A stretch of DNA of 32,000 nucleotides, taken from the NCBI RefSeq assembly GCF_025527015.1, contig NZ_JAODIM010000043.1:1241862-1273861 (forward strand), given 5' to 3'. Of this stretch, positions 3,547 to 18,542 are shown in pieces; positions within the stretch are counted from its first letter, which is position 1, and each line of letters starts with the position of its first letter. The notes below the pieces were generated by a model. It worked only from the letters and a program-made list of their open reading frames with translations. It searched no databases and had not been told where the DNA came from. The position numbers and the translations under genes are program-made. The DNA comes from Winslowiella arboricola (GTDB lineage Bacteria > Pseudomonadota > Gammaproteobacteria > Enterobacterales > Enterobacteriaceae).

Positions 3547-5223
3547 TTAAATTCTCCTGAGTTGGTTCGGGTCGATGACCATTGGCTGGCGACCGGAAAT
3601 AAGGTTGTCGTCAATGGCATCCATCCATGTGTCCAGAATGTCGTCATTGTCGTGGCTGTCATCAGCAGAGAATGCAGCACATTCGGTCATGGCAGTCAGC
3701 ACCCATGATGTTGTCCCGGCAATCGTTCCGTCCTCGTAATAGACGTGCATAATCGCCGCACCGTCATGATTGTGCGTGGCGGGTACGTATACTTTGCCGG
3801 TCTTAATCTGTGGGATAACGTTCAGGCAGCGAACCAGTTTGTTCTGGCCGGTGCCGCGAGGAATTTCTTTAACCGGGATGCTCATCTGGCCGGGTGTGGC
3901 GCTGCGTTTCTTTAGCGTGGTAATCAGACCTTGCCCGGCCTGTTTCTCTTCGATAGCCATATGACGCATTGGCATCATGCGAACAGAGCCAGCCATGCGC
4001 CAGCGTTCCCAAAGCTCTTCCGCTTTCTTCAGCAGGTCTTCAGGGTCCCAGCGGCCACGCACCACATCAATGATGTAGAGATTGCCATCAACACCCATAC
4101 CGACCAGGGTGAATACGGTGTAGTCGAGCCAGTCCTCTACCTTGCCGCTGTTGGTATCAACATAGACAGCGCGATACTGCAGTTTTGGCAGTGTGGTGTA
4201 GGTCTGGAACCAGTCCGTTTCGATAATGCCACCAGTGAGCGCCATCGGGTTTTGCTGGTATTGAGACAGGAAGGTATAGCGATCCTTTTCCCACAGCTGG
4301 ATGAGGTCGTTAACATCTTCCATCTGCGGCCAGTATGACCAGTAGCGTTCGCCGAGGTATTCGACTGATTCTGTATCTTTTACTGTTTCCCAGCACAATG
4401 AGCGCCATGGTTCAGCCAGTGATGCAATGTACTTTTCGGTAATGAGTGCCGGGATAGCTACATGGTGGAATTTAACCCCCATGCCACCAGACATCATGAA
4501 CCCTGTGGCGTCGTCAGTGTGCAGTCGCTGCTGGATGCTCACGAATGGCGTAGGATGCTCTTTCGACTTATCACCACGACGTGATCGGATGGTGTTAACC
4601 AGCAGCGTGTTGGCGCTATTGCGGCGCGACTCACTGAGCATATCGACAGGCTTGTTGTAGTCATCCAGCATCACAACGCCGGAGAACAGCTCGCCGTAAT
4701 AGCCACCACGACCACCCGTAATCTGTCCGTTGCTTGAGCGGGATATCGTCTGGCCGGTTGAGCGGGCTTTGGTGTCGATTATTTCCCACTCTTCCGCCTG
4801 GTTGACGCCGAAGCCGCACGGCCACAGCTCCTGATACTCTTTGCTGGCGATGATGTCGCGGGTGCGGCGAGAGTTACGCTTAACCAGCGTGTCAGCAAAC
4901 GAGATATTAAGGTTGCGGAAGCGTTTCAATCTTCCTTCCTGCACCAGCGCGTTAACATAGGCCGGGAAGTGGATGGAGAAGAATTCTGTTTTGGTGCCGC
5001 CTGGCGGGATGTTGATAATCAGGTTGCGGGGATTAAGGCGACCGGCTATCAAATCATCAATTTTGGATGCCATCAGGCGGTGATGCCAGTTAACCAGCAG
5101 ACGATCACCCTGTACCAGCTCGAACCATAACCGCGTGAAGTTGAGAAACGATTTCGTGGACTTTGACTTAAGAGCAACACGCTCAGGGAAGGTTAAATCC
5201 TCCCACTCGATGACTTTGCTCAT
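3547..5223 (-). CDS. Terminase large subunit
   Basis: 558 aa with a Walker-A-like IPPGGTKT and a C-terminal nuclease-like region. It follows the small terminase with a 1-nt gap. Confidence 0.9.
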   Translation of the reverse strand: MSKVIEWEDLTFPERVALKSKSTKSFLNFTRLWFELVQGDRLLVNWHHRLMASKIDDLIAGRLNPRNLIINIPPGGTKTEFFSIHFPAYVNALVQEGRLKRFRNLNISFADTLVKRNSRRTRDIIASKEYQELWPCGFGVNQAEEWEIIDTKARSTGQTISRSSNGQITGGRGGYYGELFSGVVMLDDYNKPVDMLSESRRNSANTLLVNTIRSRRGDKSKEHPTPFVSIQQRLHTDDATGFMMSGGMGVKFHHVAIPALITEKYIASLAEPWRSLCWETVKDTESVEYLGERYWSYWPQMEDVNDLIQLWEKDRYTFLSQYQQNPMALTGGIIETDWFQTYTTLPKLQYRAVYVDTNSGKVEDWLDYTVFTLVGMGVDGNLYIIDVVRGRWDPEDLLKKAEELWERWRMAGSVRMMPMRHMAIEEKQAGQGLITTLKKRSATPGQMSIPVKEIPRGTGQNKLVRCLNVIPQIKTGKVYVPATHNHDGAAIMHVYYEDGTIAGTTSWVLTAMTECAAFSADDSHDNDDILDTWMDAIDDNLISGRQPMVIDPNQLRRI

Positions 5224-5224
5224 A

Positions 5225-5806
5225 TCAGTCCAACCCGTCTAGTTTCTCCTCCAGCTGCTGTTGTGCTGCTGCGTAATCTGCCGGGGTATAGTTCACCACC
5301 TGAATAGGCAGTCCATCCTTACCAACATGTTCAGCTTTCACATTCTCTTTGAATGCCTGCACCGTGACGTGCTTGCCGAGCAGTTCAAGGTTCTTCACCT
5401 TGTCCGGCCATTTGATCTTCTTCAGGATGCCGACCATCTCACGGTCTTCACCGCGCCCTTCGAACATGTCAGCCAGATCGAAGCCGCTCAGGTATCGCCG
5501 CCATGATGCAGGCCATTCAGATACAGGCTTGATGCTCATGTCGTCGGTCATGATGTCGAGAACGTCCATCTGGTCAATCTCGACCAGGCGTCGAAGCACA
5601 TAGGCAGCATCAATTCCCACCTCTTCGTTGCGATCACCCTTCAACTGGACGATACGCTCAACGATGTCAGGTTTTGTTAGGTTCTCGCAACCTGTTGCGC
5701 GGGCTGTCTTCTCGCTGTAGCCCGCCCTGATAGCTGCCTGTGTGGCGTTTAAATCCTTCAGGTACTCACGGGCAAACAGCTCTTGCTTGTCGGTGAGCTT
5801 TGCCAT
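5225..5806 (-). CDS. Terminase small subunit (Terminase_2-like)
   Basis: MAKLTDKQELFAREYLKDLNATQAAIRAGYSEKTARATG is the classic small-terminase HTH. The start was moved to ATG 5806, which sits directly after the stop of the upstream ORF (5808). Confidence 0.85.
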   Translation of the reverse strand: MAKLTDKQELFAREYLKDLNATQAAIRAGYSEKTARATGCENLTKPDIVERIVQLKGDRNEEVGIDAAYVLRRLVEIDQMDVLDIMTDDMSIKPVSEWPASWRRYLSGFDLADMFEGRGEDREMVGILKKIKWPDKVKNLELLGKHVTVQAFKENVKAEHVGKDGLPIQVVNYTPADYAAAQQQLEEKLDGLD

Positions 5807-5807
5807 C

Positions 5808-5999
5808 TTATTTCTCGTAAACTGGTTTGACGTGGTAGCCAACAAGGTTGGCGGTGAAGTAAACAGCATCTGAACCATCATCTTCACTGATGATCAGCAG
5901 ACCATCACTCATCGTCGGGTTTTTCTTTGTCTTGTGATTCCAGGTGGACTCTTCAGAGTTAACAGTGATGTCATAGCTTTTAATCACGCTCTCACCCAT
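5808..5999 (-). CDS. Hypothetical small phage protein (63 aa)
   Basis: Tightly packed between neighbouring genes, touching the upstream stop and lying next to the terS start. Confidence 0.6.
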   Translation of the reverse strand: MGESVIKSYDITVNSEESTWNHKTKKNPTMSDGLLIISEDDGSDAVYFTANLVGYHVKPVYEK

Positions 6000-6220
6000 T
6001 ACATCATCCCCGCAGTTGTTAGCTTGGTGATCAGTGCGTTCAGATCAGTGACGACGCCCGCAACATCTGTCGCAGTTGATGCTGCCTGAGTGGTCATCTT
6101 TTTGACGCCGCCAATTGTTGCGGTAGTGGCCGCTGGCAATGTGTAGCCACCCTCTTCAATATCTTCAGGTGTTGCAACTGTGACGGGGTAGCCGCCGACT
6201 GACATGCATTTAGTGGTCAT
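5999..6220 (-). CDS. Hypothetical small phage protein (73 aa, T/A/G-rich)
   Basis: ORF with an AGGAAA SD-like motif 8 nt upstream. It is the first gene after the moron-island terminator. Confidence 0.55.
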
Positions 6221-6332
6221 TTAGCATTTCCTGCTGGTTGGATAGATATAACCCTCGGCGATGCTGATACCAGCAACCGATGATTCAGTGTGTTTATGCT
6301 GAAAAGTGAACTCAGTGAATGCAGTATTCAGA

Positions 6333-6362
6333 ACAAAATAAAAAAACCGCCCAGAGGCGGTT
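6333..6362 (-). terminator. Rho-independent terminator of the 80-aa moron gene
   Basis: On the - strand: AACCGCC-tctg-GGCGGTT followed by TTTTTTTTATTTTG. Confidence 0.75.
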
Positions 6363-6603
6363 AATGTGTTGAGTCACGATCTGAATAATTAGGCTCTTTA
6401 AGCTCAGCGTGTAAAAAACCCAAAATGGTTGAAGCAGATATCTTATTGAGAGGCTCCTGCAGGAAAGCTGAACCACTTTTTAATTCTGACTCCCATACAA
6501 ACCGCAAACCCAATTCCCATATTTCAACTTTCAAATGGCCTTCTGGAAATTTCTCTCGTGCTATCTCATAAACTTCGTTGATGCCGATTGATTCACCTGA
6601 CAT
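6361..6603 (-). CDS. Hypothetical 80-aa protein (moron), divergent from the GGDEF gene
   Basis: Strong SD (AGGAGG, 4 nt before the ATG), its own terminator, lower GC than the flanking phage genes. No family recognised. Confidence 0.7.
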   Translation of the reverse strand: MSGESIGINEVYEIAREKFPEGHLKVEIWELGLRFVWESELKSGSAFLQEPLNKISASTILGFLHAELKEPNYSDRDSTH

Positions 6604-6896
6604 ATGACCTCCTGTTTAGAGAGGTATCAACATATCATCATCAGGCGCACTCGCAAATGCGCCTTGCGACGGTCACTAAAGAGCGTAAGGGGTTTTCACT
6701 CCAATAAAACCTCCTGCGGACTACTCTTATCAGGAGCATCCTTAAGAATAAAACCAGTCTTCCGACAGCCCCATTATCTTTCCACAAGTGAGTGAGATGC
6801 CAATCCCAAACCACCTAAAAGCCTCCACGATTGTGTAGATTTTTTGTTCAGTACTGGCGTACATTAGGTGTAATGTTCTGTTACAGAGAGCCTGAT

Positions 6897-7817
6897 ATGA
6901 CTTATTCCAAGCCAAGTATTGCCCCAATACTTCCTGTGTGTAGCGCAGAAAAAATAGACTTACTTACTGATATGCTTAACGTAAGTGTGGACTGCATCAA
7001 AGTTATCAATACGAATGGCTGCCTGATTTTCATGAACAGATCAGGATGTGAAGCCCTGGGTGTTAGCGTTGAAGAAAAGGAATTCGGTATGGCATGGTTG
7101 AAACTGCTACCAGACTCTGTTCACCGCAAGGGAAGAATTGCCTTAAAAAAAGCAGTTAATGGAGAATGCTCAGGCTTCAGGGGAATAAGCGTTCTTTCTG
7201 ATGGCTCAGTCACCCACTGGGACAATATGCTCACGCCAGTTTTGGACAATGCTGGCAAAACGACCAGCATTCTTTGTATCTCAAGGAATATCACGTTACA
7301 AGTACAGGCCGAAGAAAAACTAAAGGTCAGCAGCGAAACCGACCCGCTTACAGGCTTGCCAAACCGGAGAATGTTCAAAAAACATTTGAAGTCGACACTC
7401 GCTAAAGCTAAACGTCGTACCGAAAATGTAGGCGTTTTGTTCATTGACCTGGACAACTTTAAGGGCATAAACGATACCCTGGGCCATGCTGCCGGAGACC
7501 GTGCCCTTATACAATTCACTGCTGATTTAAAAAAAATCAGTCCAGACCACGCTTTCATATCGAGACTGGGAGGCGATGAATTTGCTGTTGTGATGGATAG
7601 TGCAGATCCGAACGTTCTGACCAGCTATGCCAACTATATCCTTTCTGAAGTCAGGCGAAAAATCAGATTCAGTCGTTCAGAAGCAGACTTTGGGCTGACT
7701 ATTGGTGCAGCTGTTTATCCTGTGCACGGTGGTACGGCAGATGAACTAATGAAATGTGCTGATACAGCCATGTATCAGCAAAAATCAAACGGTAAAAACG
7801 GTTTCATGATGTTTTGA
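6897..7817 (+). CDS. PAS-GGDEF diguanylate cyclase (306 aa)
   Basis: Intact active-site motif RLGGDEFAVV preceded by LTGLPNRR and DLDNFKGINDTLGHAAGD. The N-terminal ~120 aa are PAS-like. The start was set at ATG 6897 (GAGAG SD) rather than the track start at 6831. It lies on the + strand inside an otherwise - strand late region. Confidence 0.85.
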   Translation: MTYSKPSIAPILPVCSAEKIDLLTDMLNVSVDCIKVINTNGCLIFMNRSGCEALGVSVEEKEFGMAWLKLLPDSVHRKGRIALKKAVNGECSGFRGISVLSDGSVTHWDNMLTPVLDNAGKTTSILCISRNITLQVQAEEKLKVSSETDPLTGLPNRRMFKKHLKSTLAKAKRRTENVGVLFIDLDNFKGINDTLGHAAGDRALIQFTADLKKISPDHAFISRLGGDEFAVVMDSADPNVLTSYANYILSEVRRKIRFSRSEADFGLTIGAAVYPVHGGTADELMKCADTAMYQQKSNGKNGFMMF

Positions 7818-7869
7818 GTAGAAAAAAGTTATCAATTGTTTGATAAAATACACATGCATGGCTCAATCA

Positions 7870-8157
7870 TTAGCGCGATGCCTCAATCTTACTTATACCT
7901 GCACGATCTATATTGCACTGCCACAGCAGGCCGAATAACTCTGCATTAAGGGACACGCTGTCGCCAAATGTCAGTGGGTCAGGTACTTCTGGAACGTTAA
8001 TCTGGCTTGTCAGCTCTGCCGGTAGCTTCAACTGAGGTTGCTTTATTGTCCGATATTCCACCTGCGGCTTTTGCTGCGGCGCGCAACCTGTCAGCAGCAT
8101 CAGCGGGAACAGGAGCAGTAGCGCATTTATCAGCCTCGAGGTAACGCTTGATTTCAT
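7870..8157 (-). CDS. Rz1: o-spanin (Rz1-like outer-membrane lipoprotein)
   Basis: Signal peptide with lipobox LLTGC. It starts inside the Rz frame and extends 127 nt past the Rz stop, which is the overlapped spanin architecture. Confidence 0.8.
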   Translation of the reverse strand: MKSSVTSRLINALLLLFPLMLLTGCAPQQKPQVEYRTIKQPQLKLPAELTSQINVPEVPDPLTFGDSVSLNAELFGLLWQCNIDRAGISKIEASR

Positions 8158-8443
8158 TCTGGAGCTTCCTGTTTTGCTGCGCGGTAACTACCCGCTGGTC
8201 TGTTACCTGCGACATCACATCGTTCTGCTGTCGGACAGCGCTCACCAAACCAGTTACGCTGGCGGCCAACCCGTCGTTTTTAGAACGCAGATCGTTAATC
8301 TGGTCGTCTTTGCTGTTAGCCAGCTTTTCGAGGCGATCATTTGTGGCAGTAAGTTGTGAGTTGCGGGCGTTAAGCCCCCACAGTGCTACGCAGATGAGGC
8401 CAATAACGATGATGTGAGAATAGTTTTTGATGAATGGGATCAT
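7997..8443 (-). CDS. Rz: i-spanin (Rz-like)
   Basis: N-terminal TM helix (IIVIGLICVALWGL) followed by a coiled-coil periplasmic domain. ATGA overlap with the endolysin stop. Confidence 0.8.
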   Translation of the reverse strand: MIPFIKNYSHIIVIGLICVALWGLNARNSQLTATNDRLEKLANSKDDQINDLRSKNDGLAASVTGLVSAVRQQNDVMSQVTDQRVVTAQQNRKLQNEIKRYLEADKCATAPVPADAADRLRAAAKAAGGISDNKATSVEATGRADKPD

Positions 8444-8877
8444 TTCAGAAATAGCTCCCTTTCTCGCTTACGACGCGGCAGGAGGATATCCGGGGCATTT
8501 CCGGCTCGCTTCCACATCAGGATTGCTTCTGCTGCACCGGTATAATCACTTTTGTTAATGCGATTAAGGACAGTTGAATTAGCGAACGCCGTTGCACCAA
8601 TGTTGAAAACCAGACTGCAAAGAGCGTCATACTGGTTCTGCGTAAGGTTGGCTGTGACATTTGAATTCACTGATCGCTCAACCCAGGCAAGGTCCGAAAG
8701 GAGAAGCTCAGTAGATTTGTTCTGGCTGATGACCATGCCACGTATTACTGGCTTACCGTCCACCGTGCCGGTATGACCGACACCAACGGTTGGAATCCCC
8801 CGAGTATCCAGATAACCAGTTAGCCTTTCACCCTCTTCTAGCTTGATGAAAACCACACCATTATTGCTAAGTTTCAT
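8440..8877 (-). CDS. Endolysin, GH24 (T4/P22 lysozyme-like muramidase)
   Basis: The E-x8-D-x5-T catalytic pattern is present in IKLEEGERLTGYLDTRGIPTVGVGHT. The gene lies between the holin and the spanins. Confidence 0.9.
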   Translation of the reverse strand: MKLSNNGVVFIKLEEGERLTGYLDTRGIPTVGVGHTGTVDGKPVIRGMVISQNKSTELLLSDLAWVERSVNSNVTANLTQNQYDALCSLVFNIGATAFANSTVLNRINKSDYTGAAEAILMWKRAGNAPDILLPRRKRERELFLK

Positions 8878-9223
8878 CGGTACCTCCGAATTTACGATCA
8901 GTTAATTTCCTGAAACGGAATGAGATGTAGTCGATACCGATGAATCCAATAAGAATGGCGGCCACCCATGCGAAGTCGTCACCAATCTGCCATCCGAAGA
9001 TAGACATAATCAGCTGCAGGGTTGGTTTTACGAAGAAGGCAAAGATGCTGCACATAGCAGCATCCATAAGGCGGCGCGGCCACGTGTCTTTTCCAAAATA
9101 TGATGCTCTCAGCAGAGCCATTGCCCCAGCCAGTGCGGCATAACCTGATTCATTTTTATGGGCATAAAGCCAGGCTATCAGGCTTGCCCAGAAGCCCGGA
9201 TCTTTATCTGGCATGCGTTTCAT
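8867..9223 (-). CDS. Class I holin, lambda S-like, with dual-start motif MKRM
   Basis: Similar to lambda S (MK.MP.K...AMA.LR..Y.G......DA.MC.I.A.F). The start was set at ATG 9223 (GGGGGTGG SD) and a second ATG lies at 9214. Confidence 0.85.
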   Translation of the reverse strand: MKRMPDKDPGFWASLIAWLYAHKNESGYAALAGAMALLRASYFGKDTWPRRLMDAAMCSIFAFFVKPTLQLIMSIFGWQIGDDFAWVAAILIGFIGIDYISFRFRKLTDRKFGGTDET

Positions 9224-9351
9224 TTCCACCCCCGTATGCGGGGACTTATCCAATTTAGGAATTGGTTACATTGTGAACTGGACAAGTCCGGGTAAACTCT
9301 TTCTTGACGAGAGAAAAGCACCGCCCTGCCGTGAGGTAGCCAACCGAATAG

Positions 9352-9376
9352 AATCCGCCAATGTGCGGATTTTTTT
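9352..9376 (+). terminator. Intrinsic-terminator-like hairpin oriented for + strand transcription
   Basis: AATCCGC-caatgt-GCGGATT followed by T7 on the + strand. On the - strand the hairpin is followed by CTATTCGG, a poor U-tract. Confidence 0.5.
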
Positions 9377-9435
9377 AATTTAAGCGCGCTACCGTGACAA
9401 AAGACACAGGAGTTTTTTTGGGATTCACGGGCGCG

Positions 9436-9466
9436 GAAAATGAAAAGGCCCACCGAAGTGAGCCTT
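9436..9466 (-). terminator. Rho-independent terminator, candidate tR' of the late leader
   Basis: On the - strand: AAGGCUCAC-UUCG-GUGGGCCUU (9 bp, UUCG tetraloop) followed by UUCAUUUUCC. Confidence 0.65.
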
Positions 9467-9498
9467 AAATTTATGCTGAATATGTGACTGAAGAAATA

Positions 9499-9609
9499 TT
9501 GCAGTGCCGGGTGCCTCCCGGTGAGTCAGGAAAGCTACAACCTGACCCGCTCCTTTCAAGCAAACGTATAAAGTAGCTTAGCCCCACCGCGTAGGGGGAT
9601 TCACTGCAA
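9499..9609 (-). ncRNA. Structured multi-hairpin element in the late leader: an 8-bp closing helix enclosing three hairpins
   Basis: Closing helix TTGCAGTG (9499-9506) pairs with CACTGCAA (9602-9609). Hairpins are CCGGG/CCCGG (9507-9521), GTCAGG/CCTGAC (9525-9546) and CCCC/GGGG (9582-9597). Transcription direction is inferred from the flanking genes. Confidence 0.35.
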
Positions 9610-9616
9610 CACGTAA

Positions 9617-9644
9617 ATAATAATTAACTTTCTCATAAAAGCAA
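9617..9644 (-). promoter_or_regulatory. Candidate late promoter (PR'-like)
   Basis: On the - strand: TTGCTT (9644-9639), 16-nt spacer, TATTAT (9622-9617). The predicted start near 9610 coincides with the 5' end of the structured element. Confidence 0.35.
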
Positions 9645-9880: not shown

Positions 9881-10597
9881 TCATGCTACAACCGATAGGA
9901 TTTCTTTCTCCATCTCCCGCTTTACGGCATAAAACAATTCCCCTTCAAGTATGTCCTGCGCCCATTCCATTCTGTTTCGAGCCTCCTTTGTGGTTATACC
10001 GGTGAAATAAATCAGACTTGAAGCGATGTTTTGCGCACTCTTGCGCTTGCAGTATCGTAATCTGGCTACAGAGCGGATCGGGTTATCCCGGCCAAAGGTT
10101 TTCACGATTACCGATTCCATAAAGGCAGCATCATCTGATTCTTTGGCGAGAGCGATGATGTTGCCAGTTGAGGATTGAGGTACGAGTATATCTCTGGCCT
10201 TACGGAGTAATTCCTCCCCTCTGTAGCCTTCGCAGTGAAGCTCAGAGACGACTTTCTCTATCTGCTTGCCCTTCTGTTCACTCCATTCACAGCGCATCAT
10301 TAGCCGACCTATAACGTTTACTTCGCCGCGCTCATACTCGTCGCCGGAAAGGTGATCACCCCAAACGGTTAGCAGGTGACGAATCCATGCCTGTTGTGAT
10401 CGGTTAATGGTTTTCCATCCGGTGCCGAACAGGCGGCGCATGTCTGCTGCTGTGCGTACTCCGGCCAGGCGGACAATCTGCTGATAGTCACGTTCGATTC
10501 TCATGCTCTCATCCCCATTAGCTTTGCTGTGTTCCTGATGATTCGGTAATTTATTTCCAGCATTCGCCTGGATCTGAATAAGCGAAGCCTTAACCAT
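9881..10597 (-). CDS. Putative late-gene antiterminator (Q-like)
   Basis: Located between ninG and the lysis cassette. It has a WG-containing N-terminal region and a C-terminal HTH-like segment (RKSAQNIASSLIYFTGITTKEARNRMEWAQ). The start is ambiguous: ATG 10597, or ATG 10504 (MRIERDY...). Confidence 0.6.
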   Translation of the reverse strand: MVKASLIQIQANAGNKLPNHQEHSKANGDESMRIERDYQQIVRLAGVRTAADMRRLFGTGWKTINRSQQAWIRHLLTVWGDHLSGDEYERGEVNVIGRLMMRCEWSEQKGKQIEKVVSELHCEGYRGEELLRKARDILVPQSSTGNIIALAKESDDAAFMESVIVKTFGRDNPIRSVARLRYCKRKSAQNIASSLIYFTGITTKEARNRMEWAQDILEGELFYAVKREMEKEILSVVA

Positions 10598-14383: not shown

Positions 14384-15289
14384 TTAGCCCTCCGCCCATG
14401 CTGGATTTTCGGTGATGCCGTAATCTTTAGCCTGGAAGCCCTCAGATACCGCCCGATTCTGTCCAGCAAAACGCTGAGCAGGTTGGCGATTAGCCGACTG
14501 CTTGTTCTGGTAGCTAAGTTTCTGGCTGGCAGTGATAAACCAGTTTTTCGGCTTATCGTGAGTGAATTCGATATCAAGCTTTTGCAGCTCGTAATTCAGA
14601 TCGATATTCGGGTACAGGTTCTTCCAGGATTCGTAGTCCTTGTGATTCAGTCGAACGATGTTGCCTTCGAATGCATAGCGTCCTGCCATTTGATGAACCG
14701 TTGCCTGAGACTGCTCTTCCGAAATCACTTCCTCGCAAGTCGCCTCAGCGGCTTGGGTGTTGAAGGGAATCAGGTTAAGGGAATCAGGAATCAGGTTAAG
14801 GGAATCAGCAGGATTTAAATTGTTCTCGCCTGATTCTTGCACTGTATTAGAACTGTGCTTTTCTGGTGCTTCATCATTTTCAATAACTTGCGGTAATTCT
14901 TCGGATAAAAGCACAGAACCAGCATCGTTCTTTACTGGTGCTTCTTCCGGTTCAGGTTCGGTCACTAACGGTTCTGGTATCTCACTCGCCGCTTCTTTGC
15001 AGTGTGGGTTCTGGTGCTTCTTCCAGTTATTAATCTGGATGAATGGGTTACTTTCCACTGAATAACGGGTGATGAAATTGCGATCATGCAGTTACTGAAG
15101 CATTACATCGCAATCAACGCTATCGAACGGCAGCACCAGCGCTTTAATCTTCTTGGGGCGGTCATCAAGGCGACCCTCTTTATCGGCGATTGTCCATAGA
15201 CCAGCGAACAATAGCCGGGCATATGGGTCGCATTCGGCCAGTTCATCATTAGTGAAAAAGCCTGGCTTTATATTTCTTGAGCGGGCCAT
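14384..15289 (-). pseudogene. Replication initiator/organizer gene (lambda O position) interrupted by one in-frame TAA. The fragments are 15092-15289 and 14384-15058.
   Basis: The two track ORFs are in the same frame. They are separated only by TAA (15094-15092) and 11 sense codons (LHDRNFITRYS). Read through, the sequence gives one continuous protein with internal iterons. Confidence 0.6.
14765..14836. repeat. Iteron-like array (candidate ori) inside the replication gene
   Basis: GAATCAGG/C occurs at 14767, 14781, 14788 and 14802; a 21-nt unit is duplicated in tandem at 14767-14787 and 14788-14808. An inverted copy lies at 14829-14836, separated by the AT-rich GATTTAAATTGTT. Confidence 0.55.
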
Positions 15290-17476: not shown

Positions 17477-18001
17477 ATGGCTTATTCTGCTATCGCGGTC
17501 GCTAATGCCTTCATTCAGAAAGCCAAGAAAAAAGGCATCAAAGACATAACGCCAATGAAGCTGCAAAAGCTTGTTTTCTACGCTCATGCGTGGTCACTTG
17601 TTATGTCAAATAAGCCACTTGTTAAAGACAAAGTGTTCGCGTGGCCATATGGGCCGGTGATCGAATCAATTTATCATGAGTTCAAAGGCCATGGTTCTAC
17701 GAACATTACTGTTCCTGGTACCGAGCTGGAGTGGGATGATTCTCCTAGTGCTTTGATAGAGTTTAAGTATGTCACACCTCATGTTCCTGAGGGTGATGAC
17801 CTGTCGCTATCAATCATAGATTCTGTGCTTGAAGTTTATGGCGATCAGTCCGCAGGCGCTCTATCCAATCTGACTCACCGCCCTGGGTCTGCCTGGTATC
17901 ATGTCGTTGAGGAGCACGGCGGTGGCGAGCCACGGAATCTTATTATCCCTAATGATGTTATAAAGGAATGCACATCAAGGGAGTTGGGATTAGGTGATTG
18001 A
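17477..18001 (+). CDS. Panacea/DUF4065-domain protein (SocA/GepA/PanA antitoxin-like), 174 aa
   Basis: The motif block ITPMKLQKLVFYAHAWSL...FAWPYGPVIESIYHEFK...DSVLEVYGDQSAGALSNLTH...W is typical of DUF4065. GGAGG SD 7 nt upstream. Confidence 0.75.
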   Translation: MAYSAIAVANAFIQKAKKKGIKDITPMKLQKLVFYAHAWSLVMSNKPLVKDKVFAWPYGPVIESIYHEFKGHGSTNITVPGTELEWDDSPSALIEFKYVTPHVPEGDDLSLSIIDSVLEVYGDQSAGALSNLTHRPGSAWYHVVEEHGGGEPRNLIIPNDVIKECTSRELGLGD

Positions 18002-18542
18002 CCCAAGCCAGCCTTTAGACAAGAAAAAGGAAGCTCTTGAGGCGCTCATAAAGAGGGCGAGAGAAAAAGTTGAAAGAGCCAGCGTATCCAATGGCGATGA
18101 GAAAACTTCATTGGAGCGCCAGCAGCTGGAAGGGGAAAGAGGTCAAGACGAAAAAGCGCTTGATGACTTAAAAAGCGCCGTTGAATCTCTCGCAAATGCA
18201 GTTCAGCAAATAGACACTCGCTCTAAGGACTTGGAAAACGAAGGGCAAGAGCAATTTCTTACAATGCGCGAAATGTATGCCAAAAAGGCTTACAGATTCG
18301 TATGGTTGTGGTCAGTTGCTCTAATCGTTATTCTTGTGCTTCAGGGGGCAAAATATCCCCACCTTAAGCTCTGGGTTGTTGAATTCAAAGCATCCGATTT
18401 TAATTTGGAATCCAATGTTCTTATAGCTCTAATTTCAGGAGTGACCGTCAATATCGTTGCCGTTTTCATTGTTGTCATGAGAAATCTTTTCCCATCTGAA
18501 ATGAAGGCTAGGACGACAGAGAAGAAAAAGGATGCTGACTAA
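17994..18542 (+). CDS. Coiled-coil protein with two C-terminal TM helices (182 aa); candidate toxin or abortive-infection effector partner
   Basis: GTG start overlaps the upstream stop by 8 nt (GTGATTGA). About 95 aa are charged and helical, followed by the hydrophobic segments FVWLWSVALIVILVLQGA and VLIALISGVTVNIVAVFIVVM. No family recognised. Confidence 0.65.
   Translation: MIDPSQPLDKKKEALEALIKRAREKVERASVSNGDEKTSLERQQLEGERGQDEKALDDLKSAVESLANAVQQIDTRSKDLENEGQEQFLTMREMYAKKAYRFVWLWSVALIVILVLQGAKYPHLKLWVVEFKASDFNLESNVLIALISGVTVNIVAVFIVVMRNLFPSEMKARTTEKKKDAD

Follow-up and report, generated by a model that had tools for sequence, protein, structure and literature searches.

The 32,000-nucleotide window analyzed here (Winslowiella arboricola, RefSeq assembly GCF_025527015.1, contig NZ_JAODIM010000043.1, positions 1,241,862 to 1,273,861; all coordinates below are those of the window) includes the late region of a lambdoid Erwinia prophage, and within that region a + strand gene encoding a PAS–GGDEF diguanylate cyclase sits between the lysis genes and the packaging genes. 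Our preferred reading, to which we give a probability of about 0.65, is that this is a stand-alone cyclase from a mobile gene family of the Erwiniaceae, that it occupies a cargo slot of the prophage, and that it is expressed in the lysogen, where it would be gated by a signal and would act as one input to the host’s cyclic di-GMP (c-di-GMP) network.

A cargo slot behind the lysis genes

The cyclase gene (6897–7817, + strand; 306 amino acids, within a full open reading frame (ORF) of 6831–7817) lies between Rz1 (7870–8157) and orf80, an 80-codon gene beyond which the terminase genes follow; Rz1, orf80 and all other flanking genes are on the − strand. A sequence-only reading of this DNA had described a PAS-like sensor fused to a GGDEF domain, interrupting the late operon between lysis and terminase genes, and both the Pfam domains and the strands of the flanking genes confirm that description. 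Relatives of the prophage mark the edges of the insertion. Two of them (L109 and L025) have an empty slot in which Rz1 abuts the orf80 cassette, and the homology of L109 to the window begins at 6677. Relative to this empty site, the inserted segment is 6678–7869, 1192 bp of low G+C, of which 6814–7817 can be traced to a bacterial gene family and the other 136 bp and 52 bp match none of the compared loci. The whole stretch from 6150 to 7950 is low in G+C (40–47%, vs 50–54% in the flanks), and the cyclase gene itself has 44.2%, compared with 50–53% in neighboring phage genes and 55% in the host flank.

The same slot is filled differently in other relatives. An ANT/Rha antirepressor-type gene is found there in L112, L117 and others, while L110, the nearest relative at the junction, has two small ORFs, one of them Acb2/Tad1-like. 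The latter (78 amino acids; IMGVR_UViG_3300011609_000009, L110:3939–4175) matches the Acb2/Tad1 hairpin domain PF24729 with an E-value of 6.6e-18 and is preceded by a matchless ORF of 96 amino acids. This domain family is a cyclic-oligonucleotide sponge used against CBASS and Thoeris. Among the relatives compared, a cyclase fills the slot in the window only, and there on the opposite strand. To judge from these sequences, the slot after Rz1 is a cargo hot spot.

Domain content and active site of the cyclase

The likely start codon is the ATG at 6897, ahead of which stands a purine-rich Shine–Dalgarno sequence (SD; ACAGAGAG). Pfam places PAS_4 at residues 27–135 (E 7.7e-11) and GGDEF at residues 147–301 (E 6.9e-44), with 149.9 bits for PF00990 against a cut-off of 23.8. 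The GGDEF model TIGR00254 scores 134.4 against a cut-off of 37.4, and matches to NCBIfam are at the domain level only. The catalytic stretch reads FIDLDNFKGINDTLGHAAGD ... SRLGGDEF ... ADTAMYQQKSNGKNGF, with RLGGDEF at residues 223–229. When 24 relatives were aligned, D227, E228 and F229 proved invariant and the first G nearly so, with the rest of RLGGDEF likewise invariant or almost so. Throughout the family there is also no variation at D184, D186, K189, N192, D201 and K296, and these residues align with those of TpbB/YfiN, an active cyclase, and of 3icl; RbdA, WspR and PleD are also among the relatives in the Protein Data Bank (PDB). We take these six residues to serve in metal and GTP binding, roles assigned after the PleD literature. 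The motif and the substrate-binding block, which the sequence-only reading had called intact, are so in the sequence and in the alignment of relatives, and by domain score, motif and metal/GTP-binding residues the GGDEF domain looks catalytically competent. The I-site position, five residues before GGDEF, reads PDHA rather than RxxD, and the relatives likewise have no RxxD there. Product inhibition via RxxD should therefore be absent, in agreement with what had been proposed from the sequence.

Conservation extends into the PAS half of the protein (6897–7337). Two cysteines (Cys33 and Cys127) and two tryptophans (Trp67 and Trp108) are the same in all 24 relatives, whose identity goes down to 39%, and a third cysteine, Cys51, is nearly invariant. 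Searched by sequence against the PDB, this half of the protein has only weak matches (best E 0.004), none of them a clue to a cofactor. Our guess is that the PAS half is a thiol- or cofactor-based sensor.

A roving gene family of the Erwiniaceae

The closest protein to the window cyclase is chromosomally encoded in Erwinia typographi (86% amino acid identity), followed by one from Pantoea cypripedii (79%). Relatives on chromosomes and plasmids of Erwiniaceae are 58–86% identical over their full length and share the architecture, the invariant residues and the 5′ region. Two further copies are plasmid-borne, on plasmids of 394 kb (Pantoea) and 167 kb (Enterobacter), and the plasmid of Pantoea sp. 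At-9b is among the replicons on which the family is found. The nine other cyclase loci that were compared represent nine different neighborhoods, with insertion sequence (IS) transposases beside the gene in four, and none of the nine is a prophage. A maximum-likelihood tree places the window copy inside an Erwiniaceae clade as the sister of the E. typographi copy (support 97/98).

Occurrence of the gene is patchy at the level of species. It is present in 2 of 50 Erwinia species genomes, namely E. typographi and the genome studied here, and a 400-genome sample of the bacterial family yielded remote relatives only (40–48% identity). Remote matches (31–32% identity) were also all that a scan of IMG/VR returned, a megablast search of the region against 5,426 E. 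coli genomes gave zero matches, and generic GGDEF patterns dominated a scan of genome contigs in which E. typographi was the sole useful match. No characterized member of the family is apparent, the source databases giving generic names only. DNA homology to the E. typographi chromosome runs from 6814 exactly to the stop codon at 7817. Some 75–85 bp ahead of the ATG are kept in all ten aligned family loci, and nothing past the stop codon is conserved. The mobile unit is thus the gene plus its own 5′ region. Together these distributions indicate that the cyclases form a mobile, roving single-gene accessory family of the Erwiniaceae, and that the gene in the window was acquired horizontally.

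Some individual records of GGDEF genes deserve mention. At one of the nine loci, the family member (63% identical; L130:1320–9234) neighbors a polysaccharide operon, pgaABCD, from which an IS element separates it. The copy on the Enterobacter soli plasmid NC_015963.1 (16698–17575) aligns in two pieces, its cluster representative has only 203 amino acids, and it may be disrupted. Two E. coli phage records that carry a ‘diguanylate cyclase’ (ON470595.1 and ON470592.1) were rejected as parallels: the genes are the host’s dgcM and dgcN, encoding DgcM and DgcN, and lie outside the integrase. The deposited prophage boundaries of both records overshoot into host DNA.

The stand-alone occurrence of the family bears on the idea that the insertion, in the manner of CBASS, Pycsar or Panoptes, is a cyclic-nucleotide module for defense or decoy, with the GGDEF protein as the enzyme that makes the signal or the decoy. 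The protein does have a palm-domain cyclase fold, a cyclic-oligonucleotide sponge homolog occupies the slot in L110, and Panoptes uses a GGDEF-like minimal polymerase (PMC12657218). However, the window protein is a canonical signaling cyclase whose chromosomal orthologs stand alone in nine unrelated contexts, no effector is adjacent to it, and membrane and nuclease domains are absent from orf80. PADLOC returned zero matches for the cyclase, for orf80 and for a 73-amino acid ORF on the terminase side. An aspartate in the GD motif is typical of c-di-GMP-specific enzymes, as is known from work on Hypr GGDEF proteins, and this aspartate is kept. We consider a defense or decoy module hardly credible.

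orf80 is a phage cassette of its own

orf80 (6361–6603, − strand) encodes an acidic protein of 80 amino acids (pI 4.9). It stands head to head with the cyclase gene at a distance of 293 bp (6604–6896), and both lie in the low-G+C stretch. The sequence-only reading had seen the two as an island in which orf80, taken for an orphan, is paired with the cyclase; orf80 would then act with the cyclase as its partner, effector or regulator, and the two would share the intergenic control region. Linkage in other genomes, which that reading expected of a true pair, was not found: a GGDEF gene is present in the fetched flanks of 0 of 11 other orf80 loci, and neither orf80 nor any other phage protein of the window is present at the nine other cyclase loci. 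The 80-codon gene is no orphan either. In the 11 other phage or prophage loci it always comes after Rz/Rz1 on the same, late strand, and the terminase genes that lie beyond it are of several unrelated types. The conserved blocks around the two genes (6337–6677 and 6814–7817) are separate and have different relatives, and the 136-bp joint between them matches no compared locus. Among the families known to bind c-di-GMP, PilZ and MshEN included, none matches the orf80 protein. A functional island of the two genes is, in our estimate, very improbable.

The distribution of the orf80 block (6337–6677) is that of a phage element. It is 80–87% identical at the DNA level in nine IMG/VR contigs and in other genomes; one of the nine contigs appears to be Cronobacter phage ENT47670, whose orf80 block was the sole match of the region in a megablast search among phages. 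The protein family is small. Its members form 24 clusters at the 90% identity level, 62–89% identical to orf80, and when 1.84 billion representatives were searched with a profile, only 14 clusters at 50% identity were found. The gene is under purifying selection, with a ratio of nonsynonymous to synonymous divergence (dN/dS) of 0.07–0.28.

The 5′ region of the cassette (6604–6677, − strand) is nearly invariant in an alignment of ten loci, where the ~68 bp leading up to the ATG vary less than the coding region does and share a sharp common boundary. This region contains the palindrome AGGCGCA-N8-TGCGCCT (6664–6643), the hexamers TTGCGA (6656–6651) and TATGTT (6634–6629) with a 16-base spacer, and an AGGAGG SD (6613–6608) five bases ahead of the ATG. 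One compensatory change, from G-C to C-G, is seen in the palindrome stem of L109. TTGCGA and TATGTT are a possible promoter of orf80, in which case the −35 element would lie inside the palindrome. At its other end, the cassette is closed by a terminator (6335–6362, − strand; AACCGCC-TCTG-GGCGGTT, then a T-run), the stem of which spans 6362–6345 and is followed by T5AT4. This is the strongest of 6 terminator-like sites in the region (2.1 expected), so that the SD and the strong terminator that had been read from the sequence both hold. The sequence-only description of the intergenic DNA survives in part. Its length (293 bp) and both inverted repeats that had been named (AGGCGCA/TGCGCCT at 6643–6664 and CTCCTG/CAGGAG at 6711–6737) were recovered, but the region as a whole is no more structured than its shuffles (z −0.47 on the + strand, −0.71 on the − strand), and the label ‘hairpin-rich’ has to be dropped. 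Of the two repeats, the former alone is conserved in relatives; it is part of the orf80 cassette and not of a shared control region.

The AlphaFold2 model of the orf80 protein (pLDDT 76) consists of a helix, three strands and a helix (alpha-beta3-alpha). This topology recalls a double-stranded RNA-binding domain, an assignment that was rejected on TM-scores of 0.25–0.32. The profile and structure searches that the sequence-only reading had suggested gave no significant match (Pfam, PHROGs, NCBIfam, PADLOC, PDB profile search, and Foldseek against PDB and BFVD), and the profile search of the 1.84 billion representatives added no clue to function. We conclude that orf80 is a separate 335-bp phage cassette, made up of a promoter-like region, SD, ORF and terminator, that merely adjoins the slot.

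Proposed expression and function in the lysogen

The conserved 5′ region of the cyclase gene (6814–6896, + strand) includes the SD and a TGGCGTA motif and is present in every genomic context in which the family is found. A promoter or regulatory site for the cyclase presumably lies within it. We hypothesize that the gene, once inserted with its ~85 bp of 5′ DNA between Rz1 and the next late-strand gene, would be transcribed from this upstream region in the repressed prophage, independently of the late operon and against its direction. The PAS domain would gate dimerization of the GGDEF domain in response to a signal. As there is no I-site, nothing but this signal and the phosphodiesterases of the host would restrain c-di-GMP output. 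The host encodes ~18 GGDEF and ~16 EAL proteins and two PilZ proteins, one of the size of cellulose synthase and one of the size of YcgR, so the prophage would add one input to an existing network. Added c-di-GMP would be expected to shift the lysogen toward matrix production and away from motility, and a rewiring of c-di-GMP signaling in the lysogen, as the sequence-only reading had it, is plausible.

Several points weigh against this proposal. A consensus scan found no convincing sigma-70 promoter upstream of the cyclase, and a sigma-70 promoter could not be placed consistently across the ten aligned upstream regions. Between the cyclase stop codon and Rz1 (7818–7869) there is no terminator-like site. 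This arrangement was encountered in a single genome, the present one, and one more cyclase among ~18 may have little phenotypic effect. Synonymous divergence (dS) from the E. typographi copy is 1.33, which implies that the true donor is not in the databases, and the low dN/dS of this comparison (0.06) mostly reflects history before or apart from capture and is not assignable to the prophage phase. Finally, the replication-initiator gene of the prophage (14384–15289, − strand) contains one in-frame TAA (...DVMLQ*LHDRNF...), so the prophage may be decaying or not fully functional; either its replication may be defective, or two proteins may be produced from the gene.

Some of these observations would also suit a neutral or decaying passenger, brought in by illegitimate recombination, of no benefit to phage or host, and kept only because the prophage is young or defective. 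Such a passenger would be expected in a single genome, could lack a terminator of its own, and would be at home beside a replication gene with an in-frame stop; the terminal branch of the window copy is moreover twice as long as that of its E. typographi sister (0.12 vs 0.057). However, the reading frame is unbroken, the family's invariant residues, catalytic ones included, are all kept, the conserved 5′ region has been retained, and the slot is one where related phages keep functional cargo. We regard a passenger as unlikely.

The missing terminator raises a further possibility. With no terminator before Rz1, transcription of the cyclase gene may continue in antisense through lysis genes; downstream of the gene, terminator-like sites on the + strand first occur at 8021–8042 and 8260–8276, both inside Rz, and at 9350–9373. 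Antisense damping of leaky lysis-gene expression is one of several roles that would center on the phage rather than on its host, the others being remodeling of surface structures under c-di-GMP control (cellulose, other glycans, flagella), so that adsorption of competing phages is blocked or altered, and the feeding of a PAS-sensed signal into prophage maintenance or induction. The slot in relatives does hold counter-defense or regulatory cargo (Acb2/Tad1-like, ANT/Rha), and glycans under c-di-GMP control serve phages of E. coli and Erwinia as receptors (PMC8669472; PMC9544554). In the same two studies, however, c-di-GMP raises rather than lowers sensitivity to the phages concerned. Rfam detects no c-di-GMP riboswitch or other element for such a role in the window, there is no PilZ or other receptor among the prophage genes scanned, and the absence of a terminator is the single ground for antisense damping. 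A phage-centered role is improbable in our view. We give as little credence to a wider version in which the post-Rz1 slot would be a signaling and counter-defense locus, the feedback-free, PAS-gated cyclase reshaping c-di-GMP-dependent surface receptors to the disadvantage of rival phages or relaying an environmental or redox signal to prophage maintenance, possibly with antisense transcription over Rz1/Rz and with orf80 as a possible anti-defense or regulatory protein.

Comparison with bor and DgcX

In phage lambda, bor maps next to Rz on the opposite strand, and the window cyclase gene resembles it in being extra DNA of deviant G+C that lies after Rz/Rz1, before the packaging genes, and against the late operon. 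The definition of morons (from HK97 and HK022) and the expression of bor in lambda lysogens are documented (PMC3594210, PMC7067206). Whereas bor encodes an outer-membrane lipoprotein, the gene here encodes a sensor cyclase of the cytoplasm; a search for a terminator belonging to it found none, and its expression in the lysogen is predicted. Moron-type cargo is what the sequence-only reading had called the gene, and its absence from the empty-site relative, its G+C and its bacterial kin bear this out. Taken feature by feature, the gene is extra DNA relative to related phages and deviates in base composition (44% vs 50–53% G+C), it lacks a terminator, and in place of a recognizable promoter it brings ~85 bp of conserved 5′ DNA with no consensus sigma-70 match. 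The orf80 cassette, with its strong terminator, comes closer to the definition of a moron than the cyclase gene.

A second point of reference is DgcX of enteroaggregative and other E. coli, an accessory cyclase of patchy occurrence that accompanies lambdoid prophages as they move (Richter et al. 2014, PMC4287979). The authors of that study proposed that DgcX hitchhikes by specialized transduction, and they relate it to YeaI (PMC4287979). Going by the published description, the window cyclase is likewise an accessory diguanylate cyclase, patchy in occurrence and traveling with a lambdoid prophage. The two differ in location, in that DgcX lies beside a prophage, at its chromosomal edge, whereas the window cyclase lies inside the late region. 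Location also sets the window copy apart from the PAS–GGDEF genes of Erwiniaceae chromosomes, IS-flanked islands and plasmids.

The surrounding prophage

Genes of the prophage, scanned in the window and in 20 kb to its left, include those for integrase, a CI-like repressor, a CII-like protein, replication, NinB, NinG, ERF and Q. Structural genes of the same prophage encode terminase, portal, head protease, major head protein, sheath, tape measure, baseplate and fibers. By this gene set the prophage is structurally complete, is regulated in the manner of lambda and has a contractile tail. The prophage adjoins pqiB/pqiC-like host genes.

On the lysis-gene side of the cyclase, a Q-like antiterminator gene (9881–10597) is followed by the lysis cassette (7870–9253), all on the − strand. 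The latter consists of holin (8867–9253; Pfam Phage_holin_3_1), endolysin (8440–8877; Pfam Phage_lysozyme), Rz (7997–8443) and Rz1 (Pfam LysC/Rz1). In the late leader, which separates the Q-like gene from the holin gene, there is a full-length Rfam match to the small RNA STnc100 (9435–9639, − strand; RF02076, 99 bits vs a gathering score of 47). On the other side, and again on the − strand, are the 73-amino acid ORF (5999–6220; Pfam Phage_head_fibr), the small terminase gene terS (5225–5887; PHROG terminase small subunit) and the large terminase gene terL (3547–5223; Pfam Terminase_2). The 73-amino acid ORF resembles the C-terminus of a head-fiber protein and matches only its last ~50 residues (PF11133 positions 228–276 of 277); relatives have an unrelated conserved ORF of 66 amino acids in its place. 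Beside the CI-like repressor, in the rexAB position, a gene with a Panacea/SocA-type antitoxin domain and a downstream ORF occupy 17477–18542 on the + strand.

Implications

Current concepts are left unchanged by this locus, which is a clear but fairly ordinary moron. For annotators, it offers an unnamed mobile PAS–GGDEF family with three conserved cysteines in its PAS domain, the orf80 cassette, and the hot spot after Rz1. Experimental cases of lysogenic conversion by such a gene are few, the nearest being DgcX in E. coli. Should the cyclase prove active and be expressed in the lysogen, the locus would be a clean case of sensor-cyclase transfer among Erwiniaceae by a temperate phage, and lysogenic conversion would then alter biofilm, motility and phage-receptor traits of its host.

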